Of a stretch of 64,000 nt of DNA, positions 9,301 to 22,896 are shown piece by piece. The notes beneath the pieces were generated by a model that did no database searches, had not been told where the DNA came from, and saw only the letters and a list, made by a program, of their open reading frames with translations. The stretch spans positions 122,460 to 186,459 of the forward strand of contig CAVYSW010000005.1 of assembly GCA_963771275.1 (NCBI GenBank), given 5' to 3'. Source of the DNA: an uncultured Gemmatimonadales bacterium. GTDB taxonomy: Bacteria > Gemmatimonadota > Gemmatimonadetes > Gemmatimonadales > GWC2-71-9. Each line of letters begins with the position of its first letter. The stretch's first letter is position 1. The position numbers and the translations under genes were made by a program.

Positions 9301-10012
9301 CGGTGTGGACCAGCTGCTCCACGGGAGCGACGGGTTGAAGGGCTGGGGGATGCGCGCGCGGCCCGACGACAACCTGCTGTTCGTGACCGGCTTCGACTCC
9401 ACCGCGCTGCATTACCAGTACGCGGTGAATCAGCGGTTCGGAGCGAGCAGCGCGCAGGGCACGGCGCTGCGCCAGCCGTTCCAGATCGGCATCCAGGTGC
9501 GGATGACGTTCGGGCCGGACCGGACGCGCGACGCCCTCGCCGCCCTGCGCGGCGGCGGCCGCGGAATGGGTGGCGGGTTCGGCGGTGGCGTCGGGGGCGG
9601 CATGGGGGCCGGTGGGCGGGGTGGCGCTGGACGGGTGGCGCCCGCCGACTTCCGCGACCGGCTCCGGACCCTGCTCGTGAATCCGGCGACGATCGTGCTC
9701 GAGCGCGCGGACTCGCTCGCGCTCACGCGGGAGCAGGTGACCCGCCTCACCGCCGTACGCGACTCGCTCAGCGTGGTGAACGACAGCCTCGCCGCGACCC
9801 TGGAGCGGGAGATCGAAGAGGTCGGTGCCGGCGATCCGCGCGCGCTGCTCCAGGCGATCCGCCCGCGGATGCAGCAGGCTCAGGAGAACGCCCGCCGCAG
9901 CCTCGAGGCGGTGCGGGCGATTCTCACCTCGGCGCAATGGGACAAACTGCCGGAACGGCTGCGGAATCCCCGCCCGGCGGGGCTGGACCGGCGTCCGCCG
10001 GGTGGCGGGTGA
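6314..10012 (+). CDS. Oar-like TonB-dependent receptor with N-terminal carboxypeptidase-regulatory-like domain and C-terminal LTxxQ helical extension
   Basis: Signal peptide; TVTDARGRY; plug NQLTVDG and GRFSGGV; DINGDG; barrel end FQIGIQVRMTF followed by Gly-rich linker and LTREQ/LTSAQ motifs. Confidence 0.85.
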   Translation: MRTRPSGPRWYRLSLALGACLTLRLAAPAPAHAQANETTDILTGIVVGSNGLPLAGVIIEALSLETQVTRTTVTDARGRYVILFPSGGGQFRMAARRVGYAPQATVLQRHADEDRLVWDLQMQEAAFMLDPITVTGEVMRAVRAPDQPTPGSVQRVFTPEMLANLPLDASDIALLAALVPGALVIDATDSTSAAYSVAGQRPDANQLTVDGLSFGSGQMPQEGLRNTRVVTNTYDVSRGRFSGGVMASTTRGGANALQGSLNYSLRDHNLAVEGDSATAFTSGFTQHAVGGGVGGPLVRNRLFAYFSGQVRLRADPQPSLTSATPSDLERLGVAPDSVSRFVAIVDSLGAAPASRFEGRRSNNSLSGMLRVDYLLTPNHTLMLRGDLQDQGQDPVRLGASALPETGGESRGSGGGLMAGLSSRIGGRIINEGRAYASTTTRGSDPFWNMPQGRVQVASELADGSVGITTLLMGGSAGMPSRSLTRSLEVSDELSWLPGAARHRLKLGALFHADRTEDLSASNQLGTFVYNSLASFAAGQPAQFRRVLDPSERASTALEFAVYGGDVWLPSRALQLNYGLRLERGLVSNPPAYNPGLDSSLGLRTDRLPAELDLSPRAGFTWMIGGTPGAPPRFVVRGGVGRFRSPIPLGLVAQAQSSTGLNDTESLLDCIGPAVPSPDWADYRTNPAMIPTACAGPSPGIAQRAPAAAVFAPDYGAPKAWRTSLGVQRNLTTLLRLSVDLGYARGISQYGFRDLNLDTAGGFRLGAEAGRPVFVDPGQIVPETGAITSRASRIDTSYAQVLEMNSALQSDTKQLTVSLGGITRKGIVLQTSYTWSHVRDQSSQSVRFGSGRLGGTTTSGNPNVPEWGRSGLERRHSFLTTVSYPFGAGLDITAIGQVRSGTPFTPMVAADINGDGVANDQAFVFQPTDLAGMDQLLRSAPAGVRRCLERQLGAVAERNSCLGPWEGSFDLQINMRPSFWGLRGRLTASITTVNLLHGVDQLLHGSDGLKGWGMRARPDDNLLFVTGFDSTALHYQYAVNQRFGASSAQGTALRQPFQIGIQVRMTFGPDRTRDALAALRGGGRGMGGGFGGGVGGGMGAGGRGGAGRVAPADFRDRLRTLLVNPATIVLERADSLALTREQVTRLTAVRDSLSVVNDSLAATLEREIEEVGAGDPRALLQAIRPRMQQAQENARRSLEAVRAILTSAQWDKLPERLRNPRPAGLDRRPPGGG

Positions 10013-10055
10013 GCGCCGGCACAGCCGGCGGCGCGCCCCACCTTCGAGGATAGGC

Positions 10056-11351
10056 ATGCGGATCATCCCCACCATCCGACTCGTCGCGCTGCTCACGCTG
10101 GCGACCGCGGCCGCGGTCGTCGCGCAGGGGCTGCCGCCGGATCGGCCCGAACGGCTCGGCTTCTCCGCGGAGCGGCTCGCGCGGATCGACCGCGTGATGC
10201 AGGAGGCGGTGGATCAGGGTCGAGTGGCGGGCCTCGTGACGCTCGTCGCACGGCACGGCCGGGTGGCGCAGGCGGGTGCCTACGGCTGGGCCGATCGCGA
10301 GGCCGGGCGCCGCATGACCACGGACGCGCTGTTCCGCATCGCGTCACAGACCAAGGCCGTGACCAGCGTCGCGGTGATGCTGCTGGTCGAGGAGGGGCGG
10401 CTGCGGCTGGCGGATCCGGTCGCCCGGTACGTGCCGAGCTTCGCGCGCGCCACGGTCGCCGTCGCGACCGACACCGGGCGGGTATGGGTGCCGGTCCGCC
10501 GGCCCATCACGCTCCGCGACCTGCTCACCCACACGGCCGGCATCTCCTACGGCACCGACTCGCTGGTGCAGGACCTCTATCGGCCCGTCGGGCTGGGACC
10601 GGCGGCCGGCTACGGGTGGTACTTCGCCGACAAGAAAGAGCCCGTGTGCGACGACGTCGATCGCCTGGGGACGCTGCCGTTCGTCGCGCAGCCGGGTGAA
10701 CGATTCGTCTACGGCTACGCCACGGACGTTCTGGGCTGCGTCGTGGAGCGCGCCTCGGGGCAGTCACTCGCCGACTTCTTCGCTTCCCGCGTCTTCCGGC
10801 CGCTCCGCATGACGGACACCCATTTCTTCGTTCCGTCGGACGATCGGGGAAGGCTCACGGCGGTCTACACCGTTTCGGACGGGGGCCTGGCGCGCGCGGG
10901 GGAGGGGTCGCGCGGGCAGGGGGCCTACGGGGACGGCCCGCGCGCCAGCTACTCGGGGGGTGCGGGACTCGTGTCGACGGCGGGCGACTACCTGCGCTTC
11001 CTGGAGATGCTCCTCGAAGGCGGCGTGCTCGACGGGGCGCGCGTGCTCGGATCCAGGACCGTGGCGCTGATGACCGCGGACCAGCTCGGCGCGCTCTACG
11101 GCAGCACAGGCTACGGGTTCGGATTGGGGTTCCAGGTGCTGGTGGATCCGGGCCGCGCCGGTCAGTTCGGCTCCCCTGGCCTGTACGGGTGGGGTGGCGC
11201 GTACGCCACGAGCTACTGGGTGGATCCGCAGGAAGACCTGGTCGGGGTCTTCATGGTGCAGCTGCTGCCGAACCCGGGGCTCGATCTCGCCGACCGGTTC
11301 CGCGCGCTGGTCTATCAGGCGATCGTCGCCCCATCGCCGCGACGCCCCTGA
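10056..11351 (+). CDS. Serine hydrolase, beta-lactamase (AmpC-like) family
   Basis: FRIASQTK (SxxK), LLTHTAG, YG motif, GWGG; signal peptide. Confidence 0.9.
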   Translation: MRIIPTIRLVALLTLATAAAVVAQGLPPDRPERLGFSAERLARIDRVMQEAVDQGRVAGLVTLVARHGRVAQAGAYGWADREAGRRMTTDALFRIASQTKAVTSVAVMLLVEEGRLRLADPVARYVPSFARATVAVATDTGRVWVPVRRPITLRDLLTHTAGISYGTDSLVQDLYRPVGLGPAAGYGWYFADKKEPVCDDVDRLGTLPFVAQPGERFVYGYATDVLGCVVERASGQSLADFFASRVFRPLRMTDTHFFVPSDDRGRLTAVYTVSDGGLARAGEGSRGQGAYGDGPRASYSGGAGLVSTAGDYLRFLEMLLEGGVLDGARVLGSRTVALMTADQLGALYGSTGYGFGLGFQVLVDPGRAGQFGSPGLYGWGGAYATSYWVDPQEDLVGVFMVQLLPNPGLDLADRFRALVYQAIVAPSPRRP

Positions 11352-11362
11352 CCCCGGGTGGG

Positions 11363-12088
11363 TCAGTCCCTGCCGTCCTTGAGGGCGAGCGCGATGTAGC
11401 GCTCGAGCTCCTCCGCCGACTTGGCGCCGCGGAGCCGCCGGCCGTTGATGAACAGCGTTGGGGTGCCGTTCACGCCCAGCTCCCAGCCGTCCAGCAGATC
11501 GCGCGCCACCGCGGTCCGCGTCTCCTCCGCTTGCAGGCACGACTCGAACGCCGCGAGGTCGAGACCGGCCGCGGCCGCATGGGCGCGGAGTACGGCGTCC
11601 GAAAGCGGCCCGGTGTCCCGCAGTAGCGCGTCGTGGTACTCCCAGAAGCGCCCCTGGCGGTAGGCGCACTCCGCCGCCTGGGCGGCCGCGATCGCGAACG
11701 GGTGGAGCGCGGCGAGCGGGAAGTTGCGCACCACGTAGCGGACGCTGTCGCCGTAGCGGGTCAGCACGACGGGCAGGATCTCCGTCGCATGCCGGCGGCA
11801 GAACGGGCACTCGTAATCGGTGAACTCGACGATCGTGACGGGCGCATCAACCGGGCCGCGGGACGGGCGGTCGGTGATCGGCACCGCGGCCGGCACCGCG
11901 TCGGCGTAGTCGGCCGCGTCACCCGCGAGGCGCGCGGCTGCCGCGCTGCTGCGGATGCGCTGGACCGTGCGGACGCCGAGGAACAGCCCGGCGCCGCCCA
12001 GCAGCCCCGCCAGGACGGCGGCTACCACCATCGCATGATTGGCATTCAGGGCGATCGCGATCCGGTCGCCCTTGCGGTGGATTTCCAT
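11363..12088 (-). CDS. DsbA/thioredoxin-fold protein with N-terminal membrane anchor
   Basis: EFTDYECPFC active site, GVNGTPT cis-Pro loop; start refined to MEIHRKG. Confidence 0.88.
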   Translation of the reverse strand: MEIHRKGDRIAIALNANHAMVVAAVLAGLLGGAGLFLGVRTVQRIRSSAAAARLAGDAADYADAVPAAVPITDRPSRGPVDAPVTIVEFTDYECPFCRRHATEILPVVLTRYGDSVRYVVRNFPLAALHPFAIAAAQAAECAYRQGRFWEYHDALLRDTGPLSDAVLRAHAAAAGLDLAAFESCLQAEETRTAVARDLLDGWELGVNGTPTLFINGRRLRGAKSAEELERYIALALKDGRD

Positions 12089-12275
12089 GCGGAGAATGTG
12101 CGGCTCAGGCGCACGTGGTGCCAGGGTTTGCGCGCCGGCTGCGGCGGGGGTTGCGGGGCAGCGTCCCGTCTCCGATATTGGCCGCGGTCGCGCCTCCGCG
12201 GCACCGCGGCCGACGGGGTGCGCGCAACCACTGCGCCGGAACCGATTCCACCTCCAGGAAGGAGAGGACGCCCCA

Positions 12276-12503
12276 ATGCGCAAGTCCGGATTCCTGTTGT
12301 TGGCAGCCGGAGTGGCAGTGGGCACGGCAGCGATCGGGCTCGCCTGCGGCGGCGATGAAGGGTGCCCCGGCATCGTCTGCTCCGACTGCGGTGCGTTCGG
12401 CGACTGCAACATCTCGTGTACCGCCCCGGAGGTGCAGTACTGCGGCAACTTCGGGCTCTCCACCGACCCGACGTATCGGTGTACCTACTGCGGACCGCCA
12501 TGA
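12276..12503 (+). CDS. Small cysteine-rich lipoprotein (75 aa)
   Basis: AGGAGAGG before ATG; signal ending GLA-C; 8 further Cys in the mature part; followed by a perfect hairpin. Confidence 0.75.
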   Translation: MRKSGFLLLAAGVAVGTAAIGLACGGDEGCPGIVCSDCGAFGDCNISCTAPEVQYCGNFGLSTDPTYRCTYCGPP

Positions 12504-12669: not shown

Positions 12670-13599
12670 ATGACCGACACCCTCTCTCGTCGAGCATTCG
12701 TGGAAGCTACGGGCGCCGTGCTGCCCGCGGCGTTCCCGTGGGTTACGGGAGGTCGCTGTGCGGCACCGCGGCCGGATGAGCCGCTGTTTCGCATCTCCCT
12801 CGCCGAGTGGTCGCTCCACCGGGCGCTCGGCAGCGGGACCCTCGATCACCTCGACTTCCCGCTGGTGGCGCGGCGCGACTACGGGATCGAGGCCGTCGAG
12901 TACGTCAACACGTTTTTCCGGGGCAGGGGGACCGACGAGCGCTATCTCGCGGCGCTGAAGGCCCGGGCGGCCGATCACGGGGTGAAGAACGTCCTCGTCA
13001 TGTGCGACGGCGAGGGTGCGATCGGCGATCCGGATCCCGCCGCGCGCACCCGGACGATCGAGAACCACTTCAAGTGGCTCGATGCCGCCGCGGTCCTCGG
13101 TTGTCACTCGATTCGCGTGAATGCGCAGTCGCAGGGAAGCGACGCCGAGCAGCACGACCTGGTGGTGGACGGGCTGCGCCGGCTGACGGAGGTGGCGACC
13201 CTGCGCGACCTCAGCGTCATCGTGGAGAACCACGGTGGGCTTTCGTCCAACGGCGCGTGGCTCGCGGCAGTTATCCGGGCAGTGGGACACCCGCGGTGCG
13301 GCACGCTGCCCGACTTCGGGAATTTCCAACTTGGCGGGAATGAGTGGTACGACCGCTACCGGGGCGTCGCCGAGATGATGCCGTTCGCCCGGGCGGTGAG
13401 CGCCAAGTCCCACGACTTCGATGCCGAGGGCAACGAGCAGCACACGGACTTCCGCCGGATGCTGCGGATCGTGCTCGATGCCGGCTACCACGGTCACGTC
13501 GGGATCGAATACGAGGGAAGCGGGTTGAGCGAGCCCGACGGCATTCGCGCTACCAAAGCGCTGCTCGAGCGCGTCCGCGCCGAGCTCACCGGGGCATAG
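12670..13599 (+). CDS. Tat-exported sugar phosphate isomerase/epimerase (xylose isomerase-like TIM barrel)
   Basis: SRRAFV Tat motif; ISLAEWS, VENHGG, LPDFGNF, VSAKS, GIEYEG. Confidence 0.9.
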   Translation: MTDTLSRRAFVEATGAVLPAAFPWVTGGRCAAPRPDEPLFRISLAEWSLHRALGSGTLDHLDFPLVARRDYGIEAVEYVNTFFRGRGTDERYLAALKARAADHGVKNVLVMCDGEGAIGDPDPAARTRTIENHFKWLDAAAVLGCHSIRVNAQSQGSDAEQHDLVVDGLRRLTEVATLRDLSVIVENHGGLSSNGAWLAAVIRAVGHPRCGTLPDFGNFQLGGNEWYDRYRGVAEMMPFARAVSAKSHDFDAEGNEQHTDFRRMLRIVLDAGYHGHVGIEYEGSGLSEPDGIRATKALLERVRAELTGA

Positions 13600-13604
13600 C
13601 CCAC

Positions 13605-14657
13605 ATGCGGGAGGCCGCGCGGATCGCCCGGAGGTTCGCGACCCTGGTCGAGATGGGGTTCGAGCGGGCGGACCACGCGCCCGTCGCCACCGACGTCATC
13701 CGGCTCGACCCGGCGACCGCGCAGGTCGTGGGCGGGCGCCCCGCGATGGGCACGCTGGTGTCCGTCTCGGCCGTGGGCGAATCGCCGGACCGGCTGGAGG
13801 AGGCGATCGGGCGGGCGTTCGCAGAGATGGACCGCCTGATCGGGCTGCTCACCCGGTTCGAGCCTGCCTCCGCCGTGAGCCAGCTCAACGCGACCGGCCG
13901 GCTCGAGGGGGCACCGCCCGAGGTCGTGCGCGTCGTGCGGCGCGCGCTCGAGCACCACGCGCTGAGCGGCGGGGCGTTCGACGTCACGGTCGCGCCGCTC
14001 GTGGATCTGTTCGCCGACCGGTTCGGCCGCGACACGCCTACCGAGCCCACGGCGGCGGAGATCCGCGACGCCCTCGAGCGCGTGGGGTCGCGGCACGTCG
14101 CGGTTGCGCGGCGGCGGATCAGCTTCGCGCGCGAGGGCGTCGCCGTCACGCTCGACGGCATCGCCAAGGGCTACATCGTGGACGGGATGGCGCGGGCGCT
14201 CGACCGGCGCGGGGTCACGCGCTATCTGATCAACGCGGGCGGCGACATCCGGACGCGAGGGATGAAGCAGCGCGGGCGCCCGTGGACGATCGCGGTGCGG
14301 CATCCGTCGCGGAGCGGCGCGTTCGCGGACGCGATCCACGTGACCGACGCGGCGGTCGCCACGTCCGGGAGCTACGAGGTCTGGTTCGACGACGACCGCG
14401 CGTTCCACCATATCGTGAGCGCGCAAACCGGGCGGTCCCCAAACGGCGTGGCGAGCGTGTCGGTGGTCGCCCCCACGGCGATGGCGGCCGACGCGCTGGC
14501 CACGGGCACGTTCGTGCTGGGGCCGCGCGACGGGGTCGCGCTGATCGAGCGGCTGCGCGGGTGCGCATGTCTGATCATCGATCGGGACGGGCGGCAGTGG
14601 AGATCGCGGGGCTGGAGGAGTGCACCACGCACTGAGGGAGACGAGGTGGCGTCATGA
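13605..14657 (+). CDS. apbE: FAD:protein FMN transferase (ApbE family), no evident signal peptide
   Basis: MGT, FDVTV, LDGIAKGYIVD, NAGGD, ATSGSYE, HIV, ADALAT. Confidence 0.92.
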   Translation: MREAARIARRFATLVEMGFERADHAPVATDVIRLDPATAQVVGGRPAMGTLVSVSAVGESPDRLEEAIGRAFAEMDRLIGLLTRFEPASAVSQLNATGRLEGAPPEVVRVVRRALEHHALSGGAFDVTVAPLVDLFADRFGRDTPTEPTAAEIRDALERVGSRHVAVARRRISFAREGVAVTLDGIAKGYIVDGMARALDRRGVTRYLINAGGDIRTRGMKQRGRPWTIAVRHPSRSGAFADAIHVTDAAVATSGSYEVWFDDDRAFHHIVSAQTGRSPNGVASVSVVAPTAMAADALATGTFVLGPRDGVALIERLRGCACLIIDRDGRQWRSRGWRSAPRTEGDEVAS

Positions 14658-15169
14658 CCCAAGGATCATCCCGTACCGGCGTTCAAACGGCGGCTCTGGT
14701 CACACTCCGCATCCTGATCGGCTGGCACTTTCTGTATGAGGGCCTGGCCAAGGTACTGAGTCCGTACTGGACCTCTGCGGAGTACATGGACCAGGCGCGC
14801 TGGCTGTTCCGGGGGCTGTTTCACAGCCTCGCGGCGAGCCCCACCGCCGTGACGATCGTGGACCTCCTCAACACCTGGGGACTCACGCTGATCGGAGCGG
14901 GGCTGCTGGTCGGACTGCTGACGCGCACGGCCACGGCGTCCGGGCTGCTGCTGCTCGTGTTGTACTACATCGTGGCGCCGCCGTTCGTCGGCTTGCTGTA
15001 CGCCATGCCGGCGGAGGGGAGCTACCTGGTCGTCAACAAAGTGCTGGTCGAGGCCGCCGCCCTGCTGGTACTGCTCGCGTTCCCGACGGGCCATCGGTAT
15101 GGCCTGGACGCACTCGTGTTCCGGAATCGCGGCGCTGCCTACCAGGCCCCCGAGCGGGCCGGCGCCTGA
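14654..15169 (+). CDS. DoxX family membrane protein
   Basis: LRILIGWHFLYEGLAK; about four TM helices; GLLTR; YGLD; ATGA overlap with apbE. Confidence 0.85.
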   Translation: MTQGSSRTGVQTAALVTLRILIGWHFLYEGLAKVLSPYWTSAEYMDQARWLFRGLFHSLAASPTAVTIVDLLNTWGLTLIGAGLLVGLLTRTATASGLLLLVLYYIVAPPFVGLLYAMPAEGSYLVVNKVLVEAAALLVLLAFPTGHRYGLDALVFRNRGAAYQAPERAGA

Positions 15170-15178
15170 GGACACCCG

Positions 15179-16777
15179 ATGACCGACGAAACCAAGCAGC
15201 CAAGCGCGACCAAGGCGCCGGCCGATGACTCGACGCGGATCAGCCGGCGGGGCCTGCTCAAGGCCCTGGTCTCCCTCCCCGTCGTGGGCGTCTTCGTCTA
15301 CAACTTTCTCAGGAAGAAGGCGGCGGACGACGCCAAGCGGCGGGCGATCCTCGCCGAGCTCGGCGTGGCCGAGGGTGGGCCGGCCGTCATTCCGAACGCC
15401 ATCTCGCAGCCACCCAGCAAGAAGCTCCGGGTGGGCATCATCGGGTACGGTGGGGAAGGCGAGTCGCTGGTTCGTCACGCCGGGTTCGCGCACCCCGACT
15501 GGGTCGACGGCGCGCGCAAGAGCGTGCGGGAGAACCCGCGCGACAAACAGCTCGAGACGTATCTCAACCAAGACGACCTCAACATCGCGATCACGGCGGT
15601 GTGCGATGTGTTCGACGTGCGCGCCGAGCGTGCCATCGCCGCGTCGCAGGTGGACGTGCGCTCGGGCGGCGGGCCGGCGCTGCCGGCGGCCAAGCGGTAC
15701 GCGCGCTACACGGACCTGCTCGAGAGCGGCGACGTGGATGCCGTGATCATCGCGACGCCCGATCACTGGCACGCGCGGATGACGATGGATGCCGCGGCGG
15801 CGGGGATCCACGTCTACTGCGAGAAGTGCATGACCCGGACGGCCGAGGAGGCGGTCGCGGTCCACGACGCCGTGACCAGGTCGGGCATCGTCTTCGAGCT
15901 CGGTCATCAGAACCGGCAGTCGGAGGCGCACAACAAGGCGCGCGAGATCATCGCGGCCAAGATCCTGGGGCCCATCACGCTGGTCGAGTCCACGACGAAC
16001 CGCAACTCGCCGTGGGGTGCCTGGGTATGGGACATTCACAAGGACGGGAACCCGAAGACGATCGACTGGGCGCATTTCGAGGAGCCGGCCCCACACAAGG
16101 TGCCGTTCAGCCTCGAGCGCTTCTTCCGGTGGCGCTGCTGGTTCGACTACGGCACCGGCCTCTCCGGCGACCTGCTGTCGCATGAGTACGACGGGGTGAA
16201 CCAGATCCTCCAGGTCGGGATCCCGCGCTCGTGCGTCGCGTCCGGGGGGATCTACTACTTCAAGGACGGACGCGACGTACCGGACACGTTCCAGGCCGTG
16301 TACGAGTACCCCGACCGGGATCTCACGTTCGTCTACAGCGCCACGCTGGCCAACGGACGCGATCGCGGCCTCGTATTCATGGGACACGACGCCTCGATGC
16401 GCGTGAGCGGCAGCCTCACGATTCAGGCGGACTACGAGTCGACGCGCTACGAGCAGAAGATCAAGGACGGCGTGATCGACCCGGGACAGCCGATGTTCAC
16501 GTACCGTCCGGGCTTCAAGGGGATCGACGCCGTGACGTCGGCGACGGAGCAGTACTTCGCCAGCCGCGGGCTGCTGTTTACGTATCGGGGTGGGCGGCGG
16601 ATGTCGGCCTACCATCTGCTCATCGCGGAGTGGCTCGACGTGATCCGGAACGGCGGCACGACGAGCTGCAGTGTGGACCGCGGCTTCGAAGAAGCGATCA
16701 CGTGCCACATGGCCACGCGGTCGTATCTGGAGGGCAGGAAGGTGACCTGGGACGCTCGGCGCAGGGTGATCGTGTAG
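15179..16777 (+). CDS. Tat-anchored Gfo/Idh/MocA oxidoreductase with putative flavinylation motif
   Basis: SRRGLLK plus hydrophobic helix; GIIGYGGEG; IATPDHWH; YCEKC; RWRCWFDYGTG; DAVTSAT at aa 450-456. Confidence 0.9.
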   Translation: MTDETKQPSATKAPADDSTRISRRGLLKALVSLPVVGVFVYNFLRKKAADDAKRRAILAELGVAEGGPAVIPNAISQPPSKKLRVGIIGYGGEGESLVRHAGFAHPDWVDGARKSVRENPRDKQLETYLNQDDLNIAITAVCDVFDVRAERAIAASQVDVRSGGGPALPAAKRYARYTDLLESGDVDAVIIATPDHWHARMTMDAAAAGIHVYCEKCMTRTAEEAVAVHDAVTRSGIVFELGHQNRQSEAHNKAREIIAAKILGPITLVESTTNRNSPWGAWVWDIHKDGNPKTIDWAHFEEPAPHKVPFSLERFFRWRCWFDYGTGLSGDLLSHEYDGVNQILQVGIPRSCVASGGIYYFKDGRDVPDTFQAVYEYPDRDLTFVYSATLANGRDRGLVFMGHDASMRVSGSLTIQADYESTRYEQKIKDGVIDPGQPMFTYRPGFKGIDAVTSATEQYFASRGLLFTYRGGRRMSAYHLLIAEWLDVIRNGGTTSCSVDRGFEEAITCHMATRSYLEGRKVTWDARRRVIV

Positions 16778-16803
16778 GGGAGACGCGAGACGGAGGAGAT
16801 GAC

Positions 16804-18024
16804 GTGAGCACAACGGTCCGCCTGTGCGCGATGATGTTCCTGCAGTACGCGATCTGGGGCGCGTGGGCTCCCGTGCTCTCGGCGCACCTCATCGGCAACC
16901 TGGGGTTCAGCGGCGGGCAGGTCGGCTGGATCTACGCCCTGCTTCCCCTGGCCACGATCGTCTCGCCGTTCATCGGGGGCCAGGTCGCGGATCGGTACTT
17001 CGCGTCGGAGAAGGTGATCGGCTGCCTCGCCCTGACCGGCGGCGCGCTCCTGGTCGTGGTATCGCGCACGACGGATTTCACAGTCATGAGCGGGCTGATG
17101 CTGCTCTACTGCCTGCTCTACGCCCCCACCCTCGCGCTCACCAACTCGATCGCGATGATCAACCTGAAGGACTCCGAGGAGGAGTTCGGGCGGATCCGCG
17201 TGTGGGGCACGCTCGGCTGGATCGCCGCGGGCCTGACGCTCAGCGGGTGGCGCTGGCTGGCGCGGGACGGCGTGATGCCCGTGGTCGCCGGGGACACGCT
17301 GCTGCTCGCCGGGGTGCTCTCGATCGTGATGGGCATCCAGTCGTTCACGCTGCCGCATACGCCCCCCCGCACGGAGGGTGTGAAGCCGTGGGCCTTCGTC
17401 GAATCGCTGAAGATGCTGCGGGTCAGGGACTTCGCGATCTTCGTCGGGATCACGTTCGTCGTCGCGACCGAGCTCGAGTTCTACTACATCCTGACGGCCC
17501 CGTTCCTCGAGGCGAAGATCGGCGTATCGAGCGCCAACGTGCCCGCGGTGATGACGGTGGGTCAGCTCGCCGAGATCTTCGTCATGGCGTTCTTCCTGTC
17601 GCGGGCGCTGAAACGCTACGGCATGCGGAGGACGCTCGCGATCGGGGTGATCGCGTGGCCGCTGCGCTACATCGTGTTCGCCGTCGGGAGCCCGGGGTGG
17701 CTGGTGATCGCGTCGCTCGCGCTCCACGGCTTCTGCTACGTGTTCTTCTTCGTCGCCGCGTTCATCTACGTGGACAAGGTGGCGCCGCCGGACGTCCGGG
17801 CCTCGGCGCAGAGCCTCATCGCGATCGTGGCGCTGGGATTCGGACGGTTCCTGGGCAGCCTGTTTGCCGGCCGTATTCGGGACGTGTTCACGACGGACGC
17901 GGGGACGAACTGGACCCATGTGTTCCTCGTCCCGTGCGCGCTCACCGTGCTGTGCGCGGTGGCGTTTCTGCTGTTCTTCCGGGAGAAGACGCCGCCGCGG
18001 CCACTGGAGCAAGTCCATGGGTAA
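16804..18024 (+). CDS. MFS transporter, nucleoside:H+ symporter (NupG/XapB-like) family
   Basis: MMFLQYAIWGAW, ADRYF, RVWGTLGWI, LHGFCY; GGAGG before GTG. Confidence 0.9.
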   Translation: MSTTVRLCAMMFLQYAIWGAWAPVLSAHLIGNLGFSGGQVGWIYALLPLATIVSPFIGGQVADRYFASEKVIGCLALTGGALLVVVSRTTDFTVMSGLMLLYCLLYAPTLALTNSIAMINLKDSEEEFGRIRVWGTLGWIAAGLTLSGWRWLARDGVMPVVAGDTLLLAGVLSIVMGIQSFTLPHTPPRTEGVKPWAFVESLKMLRVRDFAIFVGITFVVATELEFYYILTAPFLEAKIGVSSANVPAVMTVGQLAEIFVMAFFLSRALKRYGMRRTLAIGVIAWPLRYIVFAVGSPGWLVIASLALHGFCYVFFFVAAFIYVDKVAPPDVRASAQSLIAIVALGFGRFLGSLFAGRIRDVFTTDAGTNWTHVFLVPCALTVLCAVAFLLFFREKTPPRPLEQVHG

Positions 18025-19279
18025 CCTCGCAGGCAAGCGGCTGGGGGTCGGTCTGATCGGCGGCGGGTTCGTCGCCAGGTTCCACATCCGGTCCTGGGTG
18101 GGTGTGCGGGACGCGGACATCCGGGGGAGCGTGAGCCGGAACGACGGCACGGCGGAAGAGGCGGCGGTCCTGGCGCGGCGACTCGGCGTCGGGGACGCCA
18201 AGGTCTACCGCACGATCACGGACATGGTAGCGGACCCCGCGATCCACGCGCTCTGGATCTGCGCGCCGAACTTCACCCGCATCGAGGTCATGGAGGAGAT
18301 CGTCCACGCGATCGAGTCGGGGAAAGGCACGCTCGTCGGGGTAGCGTGCGAGAAGCCGCTCGGCCGGAACGCGGCGGAAGCGCGCCGCATGCTCGAGCTG
18401 GCGCGCCGCGTAGGGCTGCTCGACGGCTACCTCGAAAACCAGCTCTTCTCGCCGGGCGTGGTCCGGGGCAAAGACATCGTGTGGAGCCGGGGCGCGGCGC
18501 TCACGGGGCCACCCTTCCTGGCGCGCGCCGCGGAGGAGCACAGCGGCCCGCACATGCCGTGGTTCTGGGAGGGAGCCCTGCAGGGAGGAGGGGTCCTCAA
18601 CGACATGATGTGCCACTCGGTCGAGGTCGCCCGGTTCCTGCTCACGCCCCCCGGCGCGACGCGCGACGCGCTCACGCCGGTCAAGGTCACGGCCCATACG
18701 GCGTGCCTCAAGTGGCAGCAACCCCGCTACGCCGATCGTCTCGCGCGGGACAGTGCAGGAAAGACGGACTACCGGAACCGGCCCGCCGAGGATTTCGCCC
18801 GCGCCCTGGTGGAGTTCCGGGCGGCGGACGGAAGCCGGCGGCTCGTCGAGGCCACGACGTCCTGGTGCTTCGTCGGCGCGGGTCTCCGGCTCAGCATGGA
18901 GCTGCTGGGCCCGGAGTACTCGCTGGCCGTGAACTCGCTGGATGCCGGGCCGAAGATCTTCTTCAGCCGGGAGGTGCGCGGCGCGGCCGGCGAGGACCTC
19001 GTGGAGAAACAGAACGCGGAGATGGGGCTCATGCCGGTCGTGAGCGACGAAGAGGCCGAGTACGGATATGTGGGGGAGAACCGGCACATGGTGCAGGCGT
19101 TCCGGGAGGGGCGACGCCCCGCGGAGAGCTTCACGGACGGGGTCGCCGTGACCGAACTCCTGATGACGGCGTACATGAGCGCGGAGCAGGAGCGCACGAT
19201 CGCGTTCCCGCCGCCCGATCTAGCGGCGTTCGTGCCGGCCGTGGCGAGGGGGCAATGGAATCCGGGCCAGCCCGCGTAG
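18017..19279 (+). CDS. Gfo/Idh/MocA oxidoreductase (no signal peptide)
   Basis: GLIGGGFVA Rossmann motif, CEKPLG, GGGVLNDMMCH. Confidence 0.9.
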   Translation: MGNLAGKRLGVGLIGGGFVARFHIRSWVGVRDADIRGSVSRNDGTAEEAAVLARRLGVGDAKVYRTITDMVADPAIHALWICAPNFTRIEVMEEIVHAIESGKGTLVGVACEKPLGRNAAEARRMLELARRVGLLDGYLENQLFSPGVVRGKDIVWSRGAALTGPPFLARAAEEHSGPHMPWFWEGALQGGGVLNDMMCHSVEVARFLLTPPGATRDALTPVKVTAHTACLKWQQPRYADRLARDSAGKTDYRNRPAEDFARALVEFRAADGSRRLVEATTSWCFVGAGLRLSMELLGPEYSLAVNSLDAGPKIFFSREVRGAAGEDLVEKQNAEMGLMPVVSDEEAEYGYVGENRHMVQAFREGRRPAESFTDGVAVTELLMTAYMSAEQERTIAFPPPDLAAFVPAVARGQWNPGQPA

Positions 19280-19294
19280 GGCGGAGGAGGCAGC

Positions 19295-19960
19295 ATGCGG
19301 TGTGTCGGAGGCGTGTGGTGGGGGAGCGTGCTCGGGGCGGTCGCCGTGGGGGCCCAGGCGCCGATGCGTGAGGCGTCAGCCCAGGACCCGGGCGCGACGC
19401 CGGGGTTCGAGCAGCTCCTCAAGACGCCCGACGGCGGATACTCCAAGGCTGGGTGGAACCACTACGGTCCGGGCTACTTCGATCTCGATCCGCAGACCGG
19501 GATGCTGACGTCGCACGGCGGCATGGGTCTGTTCTGGTACGCGGTCCGAGAGTACGCCGACTTCGTGCTCGAGCTGGATTTCAGGTGCACGGACGGGGCG
19601 ACCAACTCCGGCGTGTTCCTGCGGGTGCCCGGTGTGCCGTCGAGCGACGACTACATCTATCACAGCTTCGAGATCCAGATCGACGACGCGAGCGCAGGGA
19701 TTCACCACACCGGTGCGGTGTACGACGCGGAGGCGCCAAGCGCGCTCGCGTCGAAGCCGCCGGGCGAGTGGAATCACTACGCGATCACCTTTCGGGGCGG
19801 CCACGTCACCGTCGAGCTCAACGGCACGAAGGTGATCGACTGGGAAGCCGAGCCGCGGGGCAAGGTGCGGGACTGGGCACGGCGGGGCTACATCGGGCTC
19901 CAGAACCACGACAACCAGAGCCCCGTGTCCTTCCGCAACATCTTCGTCAAGCAGCTCTAG
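19295..19960 (+). CDS. DUF1080 protein (3-keto-disaccharide hydrolase-like)
   Basis: YADFVLELDF, NSGVFLR, FEIQIDD, GEWNHY, GYIGLQNH, FRNIFVK; signal-like N-terminus. Confidence 0.9.
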   Translation: MRCVGGVWWGSVLGAVAVGAQAPMREASAQDPGATPGFEQLLKTPDGGYSKAGWNHYGPGYFDLDPQTGMLTSHGGMGLFWYAVREYADFVLELDFRCTDGATNSGVFLRVPGVPSSDDYIYHSFEIQIDDASAGIHHTGAVYDAEAPSALASKPPGEWNHYAITFRGGHVTVELNGTKVIDWEAEPRGKVRDWARRGYIGLQNHDNQSPVSFRNIFVKQL

Positions 19961-20624
19961 CCGGCGTGGTGGATCGGGTGGGCGCCGGCACGAGGCGCCC
20001 GCTCCACCACCACGCGAGCCCCGCGAGCACCACCCCGCAGCCGACGTCCGCCACGTAATGCTGCTTGACGAACACGGTCGAGACCGAGATGCCCACGAGG
20101 AGCGCCAGCAGCAAGTGCGGCCGTCGCAGGGCGGGACGACACGCGAAATAGAACAGCCAGGCGGTCGCCACATGAAGGCTCGGGAAGTGGTTGTACGACG
20201 GGTCGTGGTACTCGAGCCAGAGCAGGAACGTCGCGACCGAGCGGATCTCGAGCCGCGGCCGCTCAAGGTACACCGGGAAGGCGAGGTACGTGGCGTACGC
20301 CGCCGCGAGCGTGACGCCGATCGCCACGAGCAGCCGCGCGAACGCGCGCGCGTCGGGCAGCCGGAACAGCGCCACGAGCGGCACGAAGTAGGCGAGCACG
20401 TAGAGGAACTCGAACTCGGGCACGAACGGGATTGCCTGCTCGCGGGGCAGCCAGAGCGCGTGCGCGGGCCGGCCAATGCTGAGCGCGTTGACGGCGCTGT
20501 ACGTGACGGCGAAGATCGCGTAGGTCACGAGCAGCACCACGACGAGGCGGCGCCGTTGGAGGCGCCCCTCGGGGGCGACCCACCGGGAGAGGCCGGCGAG
20601 CGTGGTGGGGCGAGGCTGAGGCAT
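19947..20624 (-). CDS. PAP2-superfamily membrane phosphotransferase/phosphatase (IPC-synthase-like)
   Basis: DPSYNHFPSLHVA and STVFVKQHYVADV motifs; several TM helices. Confidence 0.8.
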   Translation of the reverse strand: MPQPRPTTLAGLSRWVAPEGRLQRRRLVVVLLVTYAIFAVTYSAVNALSIGRPAHALWLPREQAIPFVPEFEFLYVLAYFVPLVALFRLPDARAFARLLVAIGVTLAAAYATYLAFPVYLERPRLEIRSVATFLLWLEYHDPSYNHFPSLHVATAWLFYFACRPALRRPHLLLALLVGISVSTVFVKQHYVADVGCGVVLAGLAWWWSGRLVPAPTRSTTPARAA

Positions 20625-20671
20625 CGCGCTGCAAACTGCGCCGCGGGCCACCCGGAGACAACGGGGGTGTG

Positions 20672-21463
20672 ATGACGCCCTTCCGCCTGGAGAAGTGGTA
20701 CCTCGACGTCGTGGGCGACGACGGGACGCTGCTGATCGTCACGCTCGGGGAGCTCCGGCTCGGGGGGCTGCGACGCGCACGCCTGGCGGCGGAGCTGCAT
20801 CGCCCGGATGGGACCACGGTCCGGGACACGCTGTCGCTGGCCCATTTCCGACGCACCAGCGGCGGCTGCACTTTCGCGGCGGGTGGGCTGGAGCCGGACG
20901 GGCTCGCGTGGCGCGCGCCTGGTCTGTCCGGGTCGGTCCGCCTGGTGCCCAGATTCCCGGCCTTCACGCCCGCCGATCCGCTGCTCGCGACCCGCCGCCG
21001 GTCGCTCCGCTGGACGGTCGAGATCCCCGACGCCGATGCGGCGGTCGACCTGACTTGGCCCACGGGCCGGCTCGCGCTGGGCGGCCGTGCCTACTGCGAT
21101 CGCGTGCTGCTGGACGCGATGCCCTGGCGGCTTGGGCTGCGCCGGCTCGCCTGGGGCCACGCGGTATTCCCGACCGGGGCCACCTGGTGGCTCGAGCTCG
21201 TGACGCGCCGCCACACCATTGCCGCCACGTGGCGTGACGGCGTGCTCTCCGCCGGCTGCGCCCCGCCGGCGCTGGAGCCGGCGCGCACCCTGGGGGATTA
21301 CCGCGTAGTGGATCTCCCCGTCTTGCGGATCCCGCCGCTCGGCACGGTGGTCCGGTGGCTGGCGGGCGATCCGCACCAGCAGCGCTGGCTCGCCCGGGCA
21401 GTCGGCGCGGAGCGCGGCTGGTCGGTTCACGAGCTGGTACGCTGGCGCGCGGGCGACGCTTGA
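20672..21463 (+). CDS. Hypothetical protein with CrtC/AttH/tocopherol-cyclase-like N-terminal motif
   Basis: LEKWYLDVVGDDG and GRAYCD..L...PW resemble that beta-rich fold family. Confidence 0.5.
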   Translation: MTPFRLEKWYLDVVGDDGTLLIVTLGELRLGGLRRARLAAELHRPDGTTVRDTLSLAHFRRTSGGCTFAAGGLEPDGLAWRAPGLSGSVRLVPRFPAFTPADPLLATRRRSLRWTVEIPDADAAVDLTWPTGRLALGGRAYCDRVLLDAMPWRLGLRRLAWGHAVFPTGATWWLELVTRRHTIAATWRDGVLSAGCAPPALEPARTLGDYRVVDLPVLRIPPLGTVVRWLAGDPHQQRWLARAVGAERGWSVHELVRWRAGDA

Positions 21464-21513: not shown

Positions 21514-22896
21514 ATGCGCGAGATGCCGGACCCGGGGGCCTGGGGCCTCGAGCGCCGCGAGGGCCGTCTCCGGCTCGACGGGTGCGATCTCCCGGCGCTC
21601 GCCGCCGAGCATGGCACGCCGCTCCACGTCGTGTCGGCGCGGACGCTGCGCGAGCGCGTGGCCGCGTTCCGCGCGGCGTTCGCTGCCTACCCCGGGCCGG
21701 TGCGGGTCTGTTTCTCCTACAAGACCAATCGGCTGCTTGGGGTGCTGCGGGTGCTGCACGACGCCGGCTGCGGTGCCGAGGTCGTGGATGAGCTGGAGCT
21801 CCGACTTGCCCGCGCGCTCGGGGTGCCGCCCGCCGACACCGTGCTCAACGGACCGTGCAAGACCGACGACGAGCTGGCGCTGGCCGTCGCGTCGGGCACC
21901 GGCCTGGTGGTGGTGGACGGCCTGGGGGAGATCGCCCGGTTGGCGCGTCGGGCGGAGGTGGCGGGGGTCCGCGTGCCGGTCGCGCTGCGCGTCTGTCCCG
22001 GCGTGCGCCCGCGCGGCATGAACGTCTCGTCGGCCACCGGGGCGCGGCGGGCGCAGTTCGGGTTCGATCGGCGGTCGGGGGAGCTGCGGGACGCGATCCG
22101 CGCCGCGCTCGCCGAGCCCGCGCTGGAGCTGCGCGGCGTGATGGCCCACATCGGCTCGGGGATCCGTGACCTCCGTGCCGTCGCGCGGGGCATCGAGCGG
22201 CTGCTCGACGTGCAGCAGGCGATCGCCGCGGCCGGCGCCCGGGCGGACGTGCTCGACGTGGGTGGCGGCCTCGGCGCCCGGCTGTCACGCGAGCTCACGA
22301 CGTTCGAGATGCTGCGCTATTTCGCCGTCGGGCGGCTGCCGGCGCGGTGGCGCCCGGGTCCGGCCGATCTGGTGCGGCGCTACGCGACCACGGTGATCGC
22401 GACCGTCGCAGCCGGGTGCGCCCACCGCGGACTCGCGATTCCCGCGCTCGTGCTCGAGCCGGGCCGGACCCTGGTGAGCGACGCGCAGGTCCTGCTGCTG
22501 CGCGTGGGCGCGGTCCGGGAGCGCCCCGGGATCGGTCGGTTCGCGCTCACCGACGGCGGGGCGATGACCGTCTCGATGATGTTCCTCTCAGAGCAGCACG
22601 CCCTGCTGCTCGCCAACCGCGACGCGCCGGTCGCCGGCCGGACCAACGTGTTCGGGCGCCTGCCCAGCCCGATGGACGTGGTGTACCGCGGCGCCGCGCT
22701 GCCGCGACTCGAAGTGGGCGACCTGCTCGCCGTCATGGATGCGGGCGCGTACTTCACCGCCACGGAGACCTGCTTTGGCGGCGCGCGGCCGGCGGTGGTG
22801 CTGGTCGACGACGGCGCGCCGCGCCTGATTCGCCGGCGCGAGTCCCTCGCCGACCGAGTGGCGCTCGAGGTGGACGGCGATGCGATCCCGCAGTAG
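21514..22896 (+). CDS. PLP-dependent fold-III decarboxylase-like protein (LysA-like, divergent)
   Basis: HGTPL, FSYKTN (PLP Lys), LNGPCK, HIGSG, DVGGG, LEPGR, DAGAY; AAGGAGG RBS. Confidence 0.85.
   Translation: MREMPDPGAWGLERREGRLRLDGCDLPALAAEHGTPLHVVSARTLRERVAAFRAAFAAYPGPVRVCFSYKTNRLLGVLRVLHDAGCGAEVVDELELRLARALGVPPADTVLNGPCKTDDELALAVASGTGLVVVDGLGEIARLARRAEVAGVRVPVALRVCPGVRPRGMNVSSATGARRAQFGFDRRSGELRDAIRAALAEPALELRGVMAHIGSGIRDLRAVARGIERLLDVQQAIAAAGARADVLDVGGGLGARLSRELTTFEMLRYFAVGRLPARWRPGPADLVRRYATTVIATVAAGCAHRGLAIPALVLEPGRTLVSDAQVLLLRVGAVRERPGIGRFALTDGGAMTVSMMFLSEQHALLLANRDAPVAGRTNVFGRLPSPMDVVYRGAALPRLEVGDLLAVMDAGAYFTATETCFGGARPAVVLVDDGAPRLIRRRESLADRVALEVDGDAIPQ

Follow-up and report, generated by a model that had tools for sequence, protein, structure and literature searches.

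The established clients of the flavin transferase ApbE are the FMN_bind domains of NqrC/RnfG, NqrB/RnfD, DUF2271 and DUF3570 (Meheust et al. 2021, PMC8238504; PMC12052999). The published consensus of the site to which ApbE attaches flavin mononucleotide (FMN) is D-x-x-[S/T]-G-A-[S/T] (PMC12052999, section 8); exchange of its Gly for Ala or of its Ala for Val brings flavinylation down to about 50%, and exchange of the Asp for Ala has a minor effect (PMC12052999). For Klebsiella pneumoniae, a passage of the same source describes a cytoplasmic ApbE without signal peptide, dedicated to a soluble fumarate reductase. Here we analyse the window, a stretch of 64,000 nucleotides from an uncultured Gemmatimonadales bacterium (GenBank assembly GCA_963771275.1, contig CAVYSW010000005.1, positions 122,460 to 186,459 of the forward strand). 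It encodes a Gfo/Idh/MocA-family dehydrogenase (gene gfo) with a signal for twin-arginine translocation (Tat) and an ApbE-type site. As a preliminary description of the window had it, gfo lies two genes downstream of apbE, and the gene in between encodes DoxX. On balance, comparison of homologous loci makes it probable that this dehydrogenase is flavinylated on Thr456 by a signal-less ApbE; the bound FMN would then pass reducing equivalents from reduced nicotinamide adenine dinucleotide (phosphate), NAD(P)H, to quinone via DoxX.

By sequence, the best solved relative of the dehydrogenase is the glucoside 3-dehydrogenase AL3 (8tdf/8tdh, E 3.9e-23, over residues 168-372). The accessible part of a preprint (10.1101/2024.03.25.586180) presents AL3 as a Tat-exported enzyme, infers that it binds NAD tightly and names as its partners a cytosolic Gfo, a protein resembling sugar-phosphate isomerases and a DUF1080 protein. 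In the periplasm, the NAD(P) of exported Gfo/Idh/MocA sugar dehydrogenases is non-exchangeable, and in the same part of the preprint the route of its re-oxidation is left open: in vivo, AL3 may use 'specialized proteins, such as cytochromes', and the authors also propose that NAD is recycled when 3-ketoglucose is reduced. 8tdf is a top match by fold as well, with Foldseek TM-scores of 0.55 (query) and 0.65 (target) at 19% identity, and there were fold matches with a probability of 1.00 to many Gfo/Idh/MocA structures; by fold, the closest solved relatives also include levoglucosan dehydrogenase and 8tdi. The glucose-fructose oxidoreductase (GFOR) of Zymomonas mobilis (1ofg, 1h6a and others) is also among the Protein Data Bank (PDB) matches. 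GFOR is exported by Tat with a non-dissociable NADP, which is regenerated by a second sugar in a ping-pong reaction. On the membrane side, DoxD is part of a quinone-reducing enzyme, the DoxD/DoxA thiosulfate:quinone oxidoreductase.

A candidate ApbE site in a Tat-signal dehydrogenase

The three genes concerned and the features of the dehydrogenase are:

13605..14657 (+): ApbE flavin transferase, 350 aa with the ATG at 13605 as start (PF02424, 252-253 bits)
14654..15169 (+): DoxX-family integral membrane protein, 171 aa (PF07681, 24.6 bits, a marginal pass of the cut-off of 23.6)
15179..16777 (+): Gfo/Idh/MocA oxidoreductase, 532 aa (Pfam PF01408, PF22725 and PF02894; AlphaFold2 model; PDB relatives)
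15242..15262 (+): twin-arginine motif S22-R-R-G-L-L-K28 (translation; R23 and R24 nearly invariant in three alignments)
15254..15310 (+): hydrophobic stretch L26-L44, about 18 residues, inside the modelled helix 23-61, followed by RKK and without Ala-x-Ala
15443..15460 (+): Rossmann dinucleotide-binding motif G89-Y-G-G-E-G94 (GxGxxG; G89 and G91 invariant in every alignment, G94 in one and nearly so in two)
16526..16546 (+): candidate ApbE-type site D450-A-V-T-S-A-T456 (translation, homologue alignments, model), with T456 as the predicted FMN-phosphoester acceptor

The codons gac gcc gtg acg tcg gcg acg at 16526-16546 (+) encode D450-A-V-T-S-A-T456 of the 532-aa open reading frame (ORF) 15179-16777, in the protein context GFKGIDAVTSATEQYF. 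Translation and Pfam thus bear out the place and the host protein given for the motif in the preliminary description. The site begins with Asp and ends with an acceptor-type Ser/Thr residue (D450, T456), as the seven-residue sites of ApbE clients do. Both the N-terminal Rossmann domain and the C-terminal alpha/beta domain score above the Pfam cut-offs (PF01408 GFO_IDH_MocA, 53.1 bits, cut-off 24; PF22725 GFO_IDH_MocA_C3, 33.1 bits, cut-off 27; PF02894 GFO_IDH_MocA_C, 25.3 bits, cut-off 22.9), placing the protein in the Gfo/Idh/MocA family. These are the only domains that Pfam gives, and none of the known ApbE-client folds (FMN_bind, NQR2_RnfD_RnfE, DUF2271, DUF3570) is among them.

Besides G89 and G91, all alignments keep residues G94, E215 and K216 without change or almost so. 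E215-K216 are the conserved Glu-Lys of the 'EKP' motif. Since GxGxxG and E215-K216 are conserved, the dehydrogenase still looks like an NAD(P) enzyme. In the AlphaFold2 model (mean predicted local distance difference test, pLDDT, 88.9; predicted TM-score, pTM, 0.86; alignment of 85 rows) residues 23-61 form one long helix. As RKK follows the hydrophobic stretch and an Ala-x-Ala site is missing, this helix is likely to stay uncleaved as an N-terminal membrane anchor. TatC is encoded in the genome. The modelled site is a coil at the N-terminus of helix 455-462, with a pLDDT of 66-68 over residues 441-460.

In the six-frame ORFs of the genome (at least 100 aa) the pattern D-x-x-[ST]-[GS]-A-[ST] has 60 matches in 4.99 million residues, which sets a chance level of about 0.006 matches per 532-aa protein. 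At this level a lone match is weak evidence and, because the pattern alone matches 60 times in the genome, the significance of the motif rests on its conservation. RnfD of the same genome reads V-D-A-V-T-T-A-T-P-L at its ApbE site; hence, an established client class of the same organism has a hydroxyl at motif position 5.

The motif is kept in all 120 best database homologues (72-93% identity), as DAVTSAT in 99, DAITSAT in 19, DAVSSAT in 1 and DAMTSAT in 1. The motif stands at the same place in 18 of 150 representatives of clusters at 50% identity, a set with many fragments and distant paralogues; identities of the 18 go down to about 39%. An alignment of 63 orthologues was made up of the window, 43 species-representative loci and 19 Gemmatimonadota loci, some rows being close kin; a truncated locus (L023) and a frameshifted one (L096) were left out. 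At the motif, these 63 orthologues read:

Motif position 1 (residue 450): D 58, E 5
Motif position 4 (residue 453): T 47, S 13, A 3
Motif position 5 (residue 454): S 53, T 8, G 1, A 1
Motif position 6 (residue 455): A 56, P 7
Motif position 7 (residue 456, acceptor): T 61, S 2

In the same alignment the 7-residue segment ranks 26th of 448 in conservation, and the site is conserved across phyla to about 37% identity. The orthologues are spread over Bacteroidota (including the gut genera Prevotella and Odoribacter), Gemmatimonadota, Neomarinimicrobiota, Aminicenantes and one gammaproteobacterial metagenome-assembled genome (MAG). In 36 distant Tat-Gfo paralogues the loop is absent or unalignable. 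This agrees with its earlier description as an insertion relative to typical Gfo proteins, a view that is qualified by the same-length loop of four other relatives, considered below.

Some loops have wording of their own. In four Bacteroidales loci (L042, L043, L044, L046), where doxX lies downstream of the dehydrogenase gene, the loop reads V-D-A-V-S-S-A-T-A-R-[AT]-Y. The variant D-A-V-T-T-P-T is that of a Gemmatimonadota family (L092, L093, L005) which retains apbE-doxX-gfo, and the ApbEs of these loci form a sub-clade of their own with A-M-S-T in place of A-M-G-T. Co-variation of the T-T-P-T loop with the altered 'MGT' segment of ApbE was considered and dropped, as L094 and L095 change the segment yet keep T-S-A-T. 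A frameshift or an assembly error breaks the orthologue of L096 (G023:C9:186244-187828) into two reading frames, for residues 4-233 and 234-531, beside intact apbE and doxX.

Pairing with doxX and linkage to apbE

With one genome scanned for each species, 80 loci were obtained, namely 44 orthologue loci (at least 37% identity, about 520-560 aa) and 36 paralogue loci that encode more distant, shorter Tat-Gfo proteins. The doxX gene adjoins the dehydrogenase gene in all 44 orthologue loci, upstream in 40 and downstream in 4. DoxX, ApbE and the loop were each found in none of the 36 paralogue loci. Thus, the conserved unit is doxX plus gfo, and the invariant partner of the dehydrogenase is DoxX, not ApbE, a point that the preliminary description overlooked. 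Within DoxX, the blocks LRxLIGWHFLYEG and PxEGSYLxVNK are conserved, and mean column identity is 48% (54 sequences). A helical insertion in the Rossmann domain of the dehydrogenase, AGFAHPDWVDGARKSVRENPRDKQLETYLNQDDL (window 15440-15600, residues ~100-135), is common to the DoxX-linked orthologues; several distant relatives (P0164, P0171, P0006) have a shorter form or lack it. The insertion may be part of a flavin or DoxX interface. No fusion protein was found when residues 300-532 were queried for fusions (932-2660 aa), which is weak evidence, and none occurs among the 120 and 150 homologue matches listed.

The apbE gene lies in the flanks of six of the 44 orthologue loci (L004, L005, L006, L019, L022, L041), a contig end cutting the flanks in 27 of the 44. 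In L022, L041 and L019 it is part of the doxX-gfo cluster. In the cultured Prevotella sp. 10(H) (L022) one strand carries gfo, doxX, the site-bearing gfo, another Tat-type gfo, DUF1080 and TIM-barrel genes, a signal-less apbE and tatC. A Bacteroidota MAG (L041) has apbE-doxX-gfo, and a Neomarinimicrobiota genome (L019) has doxX-gfo-MFS-gfo-DUF1080 with a convergent apbE. In the six apbE-bearing loci, 51 neighbouring ORFs were scanned and none matched FMN_bind. In the Aminicenantes MAG (L004) a lipoprotein ApbE is divergently oriented and stands beside a NusG_II-domain protein; its link to doxX-gfo may be coincidental.

In 301 genomes of the Gemmatimonadota an ApbE match was present in 176 and the orthologue (E <=1e-179) in 16, all of which have at least two ApbE matches; the 16 include the window genome and one frameshifted copy. 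At all 15 assessable loci apbE, doxX and gfo are collinear on the same strand, and at the sixteenth ApbE-DoxX stand at one contig end and the dehydrogenase starts another contig. The loop of the 15 loci reads DA[VI]TSAT in 13 and DAVTTPT in two (L092, L093), which retain apbE, as does the related L005. ApbE is encoded in all 21 Gemmatimonadota genomes with doxX-gfo. Outside the phylum, genomes without a nearby apbE encode ApbE elsewhere in nine of ten checked, the exception being a fragmentary 1.9-Mb assembly of short contigs. In this small sample of genomes, no complete genome with the module and without ApbE was found.

Two ApbE lineages and the search for other clients

The ApbE frame of the window has no hydrophobic stretch before the catalytic domain, whichever start codon is chosen, and the protein is consequently predicted to be cytoplasmic. 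N-termini of 21 linked ApbEs and 20 paralogues were compared, signals being judged by eye. The linked Gemmatimonadota ApbEs have no hydrophobic N-terminus and share M..IARKLAAL..LGFERVD. Of the 20 paralogues from the same genomes, 11 have a clear twin-arginine signal (HPTRRxxxALGVGAFVV) and most others a hydrophobic N-terminus. The linked ApbE of Prevotella is likewise without signal, and the linked copies of L004, L019 and L041 are lipoprotein-like. The linked ApbEs of Gemmatimonadota, 18 in number, fall into a single clade apart from all paralogues in a quick maximum-likelihood tree (Shimodaira-Hasegawa-like approximate likelihood ratio test, SH-aLRT, 100; branch length 1.05). A single origin of the module-linked apbE genes was rejected, as the copies of L019, L022 and L041 cluster with two Gemmatimonadota paralogues that are not linked to the module, and that of L004 is isolated in the tree. 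Since the linked ApbEs of other phyla fall outside the Gemmatimonadota clade, linkage appears to have arisen more than once.

The other ApbE of the genome is Tat-exported and closes an RNF operon outside the window (RnfC, RnfD, RnfG, RnfE, RnfA; L123, G000:C3:1143000-1151500). RnfG of this operon carries D-M-V-T-G-A-T and is the only FMN_bind match in the genome. Because the RNF operon ends in an ApbE with a Tat signal, the genome has two kinds of ApbE, an exported one for RNF and a signal-less one next to the dehydrogenase. Pfam found no FMN_bind gene in the window operon, in line with the preliminary description, which had seen no separate FMN-binding gene there. DUF2271 was not found in the genome by a search whose control worked; DUF3570 had no match in the genome either, in a search that is uninformative as its control matched nowhere. 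By these searches, no known client family is left for the operon ApbE.

Other proteins of the operon were considered as targets. DoxX and the remaining operon proteins were rejected, as neither the DoxX alignment nor the six-frame ORFs revealed a conserved site. Across the six-frame ORFs from 14 Gemmatimonadota loci, no motif but the Gfo loop recurs, even when the pattern is widened to [DE]xx[ST][GSA]A[ST].

A possible route to quinone and its known counterparts

The preliminary description had named the Gfo loop as the most plausible ApbE target. Conservation, collinearity, a separate signal-less ApbE and the lack of a rival motif or client now speak for this proposal, and Ser in place of the consensus Gly speaks against it; overall, the comparisons make a fairly good case for a new ApbE client. 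In the cytoplasm, the enzyme would fold around NAD(P), and ApbE would move FMN from flavin adenine dinucleotide (FAD) to T456. The holo-enzyme would be exported in its folded state by Tat and held by the uncleaved N-terminal helix. As Tat exports folded, cofactor-loaded proteins and the client has a Tat signal, flavinylation before export is the natural supposition. In the periplasm, a sugar or glycoside hydroxyl would be oxidised, a substrate suggested by the nearest solved relatives, which are glycoside 3-dehydrogenases, and by the DUF1080 and TIM-barrel 3-keto-glycoside genes of the operon. The tethered FMN would take hydride from the trapped NAD(P)H and then reduce quinone at DoxX, the predicted quinone-side membrane partner of the dehydrogenase. 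To our knowledge, NAD(P)H:quinone oxidoreductases all use a flavin as hydride acceptor, and since the module offers no other flavin, the tethered FMN would be needed for the step from hydride to quinone. The full electron path through DoxX is plausible, if not quite something we would count on.

Several observations weigh against flavinylation of T456. The site agrees with the published consensus in its initial Asp and its final Thr and departs from it at position 5: the acceptor is preceded by T-S-A, not by [S/T]-G-A. Gly occurs at position 5 in 1/63 orthologues, Pro at position 6 in 7/63 (including L005, L092 and L093, where apbE is adjacent) and Ala at position 4 in 3/63, and even the looser [GS] pattern of the preliminary description fits only 44/63. 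No flavin-binding fold is recognised in the dehydrogenase. In four relatives (P0153, P0156, P0159, P0175; 29-35% identity) a loop of the same length lacks the motif and reads S-P-[ST]. Linkage is uneven as well: apbE is found in 2/17 orthologue loci with full 8-kb flanks, and five Gemmatimonadota f10 genomes (L098-L102) have doxX-gfo and no apbE within 9-12 kb. Outside the Gemmatimonadota, apbE lies in the flanks of 4/42 orthologue loci and most orthologues keep the site without it, so that the motif is not confined to loci with an adjacent apbE, as the preliminary description would have expected. Adjacency is too strict a measure, since ApbE acts in trans, from elsewhere in the genome, and each f10 genome encodes an ApbE somewhere. 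These points would suit an alternative that we regard as unlikely and yet as one to be taken seriously, namely that the loop is a structural or DoxX-docking element resembling an ApbE site and that the operon ApbE hydrolyses FAD, supplies flavin or modifies a distant client. The loop tracks DoxX perfectly (44/44 against 0/36), with apbE linked in some lineages only, and could for this reason be a docking element; T456 caps a helix in the model, where a conserved Thr can have a structural role; and some ApbE-family proteins are FAD pyrophosphatases, according to part of PMC4436053. Against this alternative stand the collinearity at 15/15 assessable Gemmatimonadota loci and the dedicated signal-less ApbE clade, and a cytoplasmic FAD pyrophosphatase would have no evident role among exported enzymes. 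The acceptor hydroxyl is kept in 63/63 orthologues, no other recurrent site occurs in the neighbourhood, and the only FMN_bind protein, RnfG, belongs to the RNF operon beside the other ApbE.

Flavinylation of T456 is compatible with a different fate of the electrons, in which FMN is a catalytic or regulatory cofactor or serves a soluble periplasmic acceptor, and DoxX has a role other than electron transfer. We consider this improbable. In its favour, the Pfam match of DoxX is marginal (24.6 against 23.6 bits), no cofactor site was identified in DoxX, and the accessible part of the AL3 preprint names cytochromes as possible re-oxidants (10.1101/2024.03.25.586180). A co-fold of Gfo, NAD and FMN with DoxX gives weak support for contact and is not relied on: the interface score ipSAE has a median of 0.37 (0.37, 0.18, 0.53), with 0.00 as the best of three controls and a partner pLDDT of 75-77. 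In calibration the mark was reached by 116/157 solved complexes and 2/215 mismatches, of which 18/157 and both mismatches lay at 0.60 or below, and the present input, with its own alignments and riding ligands, falls outside the calibrated range. Against a DoxX without electron transfer stand the invariant and tightly packed doxX-gfo pair (44/44; a gap of 9 bases in the window), the high conservation of the DoxX blocks, the presence of DoxD-type proteins in a quinone oxidoreductase and the lack, by Pfam, of any cytochrome or other redox carrier among the window operon genes. That the motif is a chance occurrence of a short, loose pattern is hardly credible: the 60 matches in six-frame ORFs, mostly in unrelated or non-coding frames, make single hits cheap, whereas conservation in 120/120 homologues and across phyla to ~37% identity, together with the tie to apbE throughout a phylum, is foreign to chance.

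If flavinylation and transfer to DoxX hold true, the module would be a direct wire from extracytoplasmic sugar oxidation to the quinone pool, and would explain how exported NAD-bound sugar dehydrogenases carry out net oxidations. The range of ApbE clients, made up of small flavin carriers, would be extended by a catalytic NAD enzyme, and a DoxX subfamily would gain a functional role. The doxX-gfo module is widespread. Tentatively, it could represent a new kind of respiratory dehydrogenase, an anchored periplasmic Rossmann enzyme with fixed NAD(P) and an ApbE-tethered FMN that reaches quinone via DoxX. Searches of full-text literature yielded no paper in which DoxX and ApbE are both named and none that ties flavinylation to Gfo/Idh/MocA enzymes. 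Gfo, MocA and DoxX are absent from the main texts of PMC8238504, PMC11334425 and PMC12052999, although the gene-cluster tables of PMC8238504 might list them. The apbE-doxX-gfo arrangement was not found described in print.

The operon genes (12670-19960) lie tightly packed on one strand (+), the apbE stop overlapping the doxX start by 4 bases. The remaining members and the flanking genes are:

12670..13599 (+): xylose-isomerase-like TIM barrel (AP_endonuc_2; PF01261, 90 bits), N-terminus SRRAFVEATGAV twin-arginine-like
16810..18024 (+): transporter of the major facilitator superfamily (MFS), nucleoside/H+ symporter family (PF03825, 332 bits)
18014..19279 (+): second Gfo/Idh/MocA oxidoreductase, without signal sequence, predicted to be cytoplasmic, AL4-like (Pfam, translation)
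19295..19960 (+): 3-keto-disaccharide hydrolase (DUF1080) family protein, AL1-like (PF06439, 131.6 bits)
9825-11351 (+): beta-lactamase-family protein, flanking
11363-12463 (-): DsbA-like thioredoxin-fold protein, flanking
20058-20672 and 20669-21463 (+): two ORFs without Pfam match, flanking
21514-22896 (+): ornithine/diaminopimelate (DAP)-type decarboxylase dependent on pyridoxal phosphate (PLP), flanking

In view of the pathway set out in part of the preprint 10.1101/2024.03.25.586180, the TIM-barrel protein is likely to be an AL2-type 3-keto-glycoside lyase/isomerase partner. Oxidation of glycosides at C3 by the dehydrogenase would be consistent with its context of DUF1080, TIM-barrel and second Gfo genes. 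In the five f10 genomes, an insertion of 31 residues follows the GGIYYFK segment of Gfo, and the loop reads E-A-[VI]-T-[SA]-A-T-x-Q-W.

Akin to AL3 and its BT counterpart, the dehydrogenase is a Tat-signal Gfo/Idh/MocA enzyme among genes for DUF1080, TIM-barrel and second, signal-less Gfo proteins. In contrast to AL3, it adds a putative anchor helix, a flavinylation-type loop and a DoxX partner; its C-terminal part, including the loop, is unalignable to 8tdf, and the cluster genes given for AL3 in the accessible part of its description do not list DoxX or ApbE. GFOR of Zymomonas is likewise a Gfo/Idh/MocA enzyme and is not known to have a flavin site, DoxX or membrane anchor. DoxD/DoxA and the DoxX family are counterparts of the small membrane protein of the window, which matches Pfam DoxX; its partner is a different one, no thiosulfate chemistry being implied here.

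As in the partial account for K. pneumoniae, a second, signal-less and apparently one-client ApbE would stand beside an exported housekeeping ApbE. Unlike its counterpart there, which stays cytoplasmic, the client described here is Tat-signalled and would be exported after modification. The fumarate-reductase client carries an FMN_bind domain. With the established ApbE clients in general, the dehydrogenase has in common a seven-residue Asp...Thr site in an accessible loop, an apbE in the same operon and its nature as a predicted extracytosolic redox protein tied to the membrane, and, as in the identification of DUF2271 and DUF3570, an 'orphan' apbE led to a conserved motif in a neighbouring gene. 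It differs from them in that position 5 of the site is Ser and not Gly, that the linked Gemmatimonadota ApbE lacks a signal peptide, and that the putative flavin carrier is a Rossmann-type NAD(P) dehydrogenase instead of a small flavin-binding or membrane domain.

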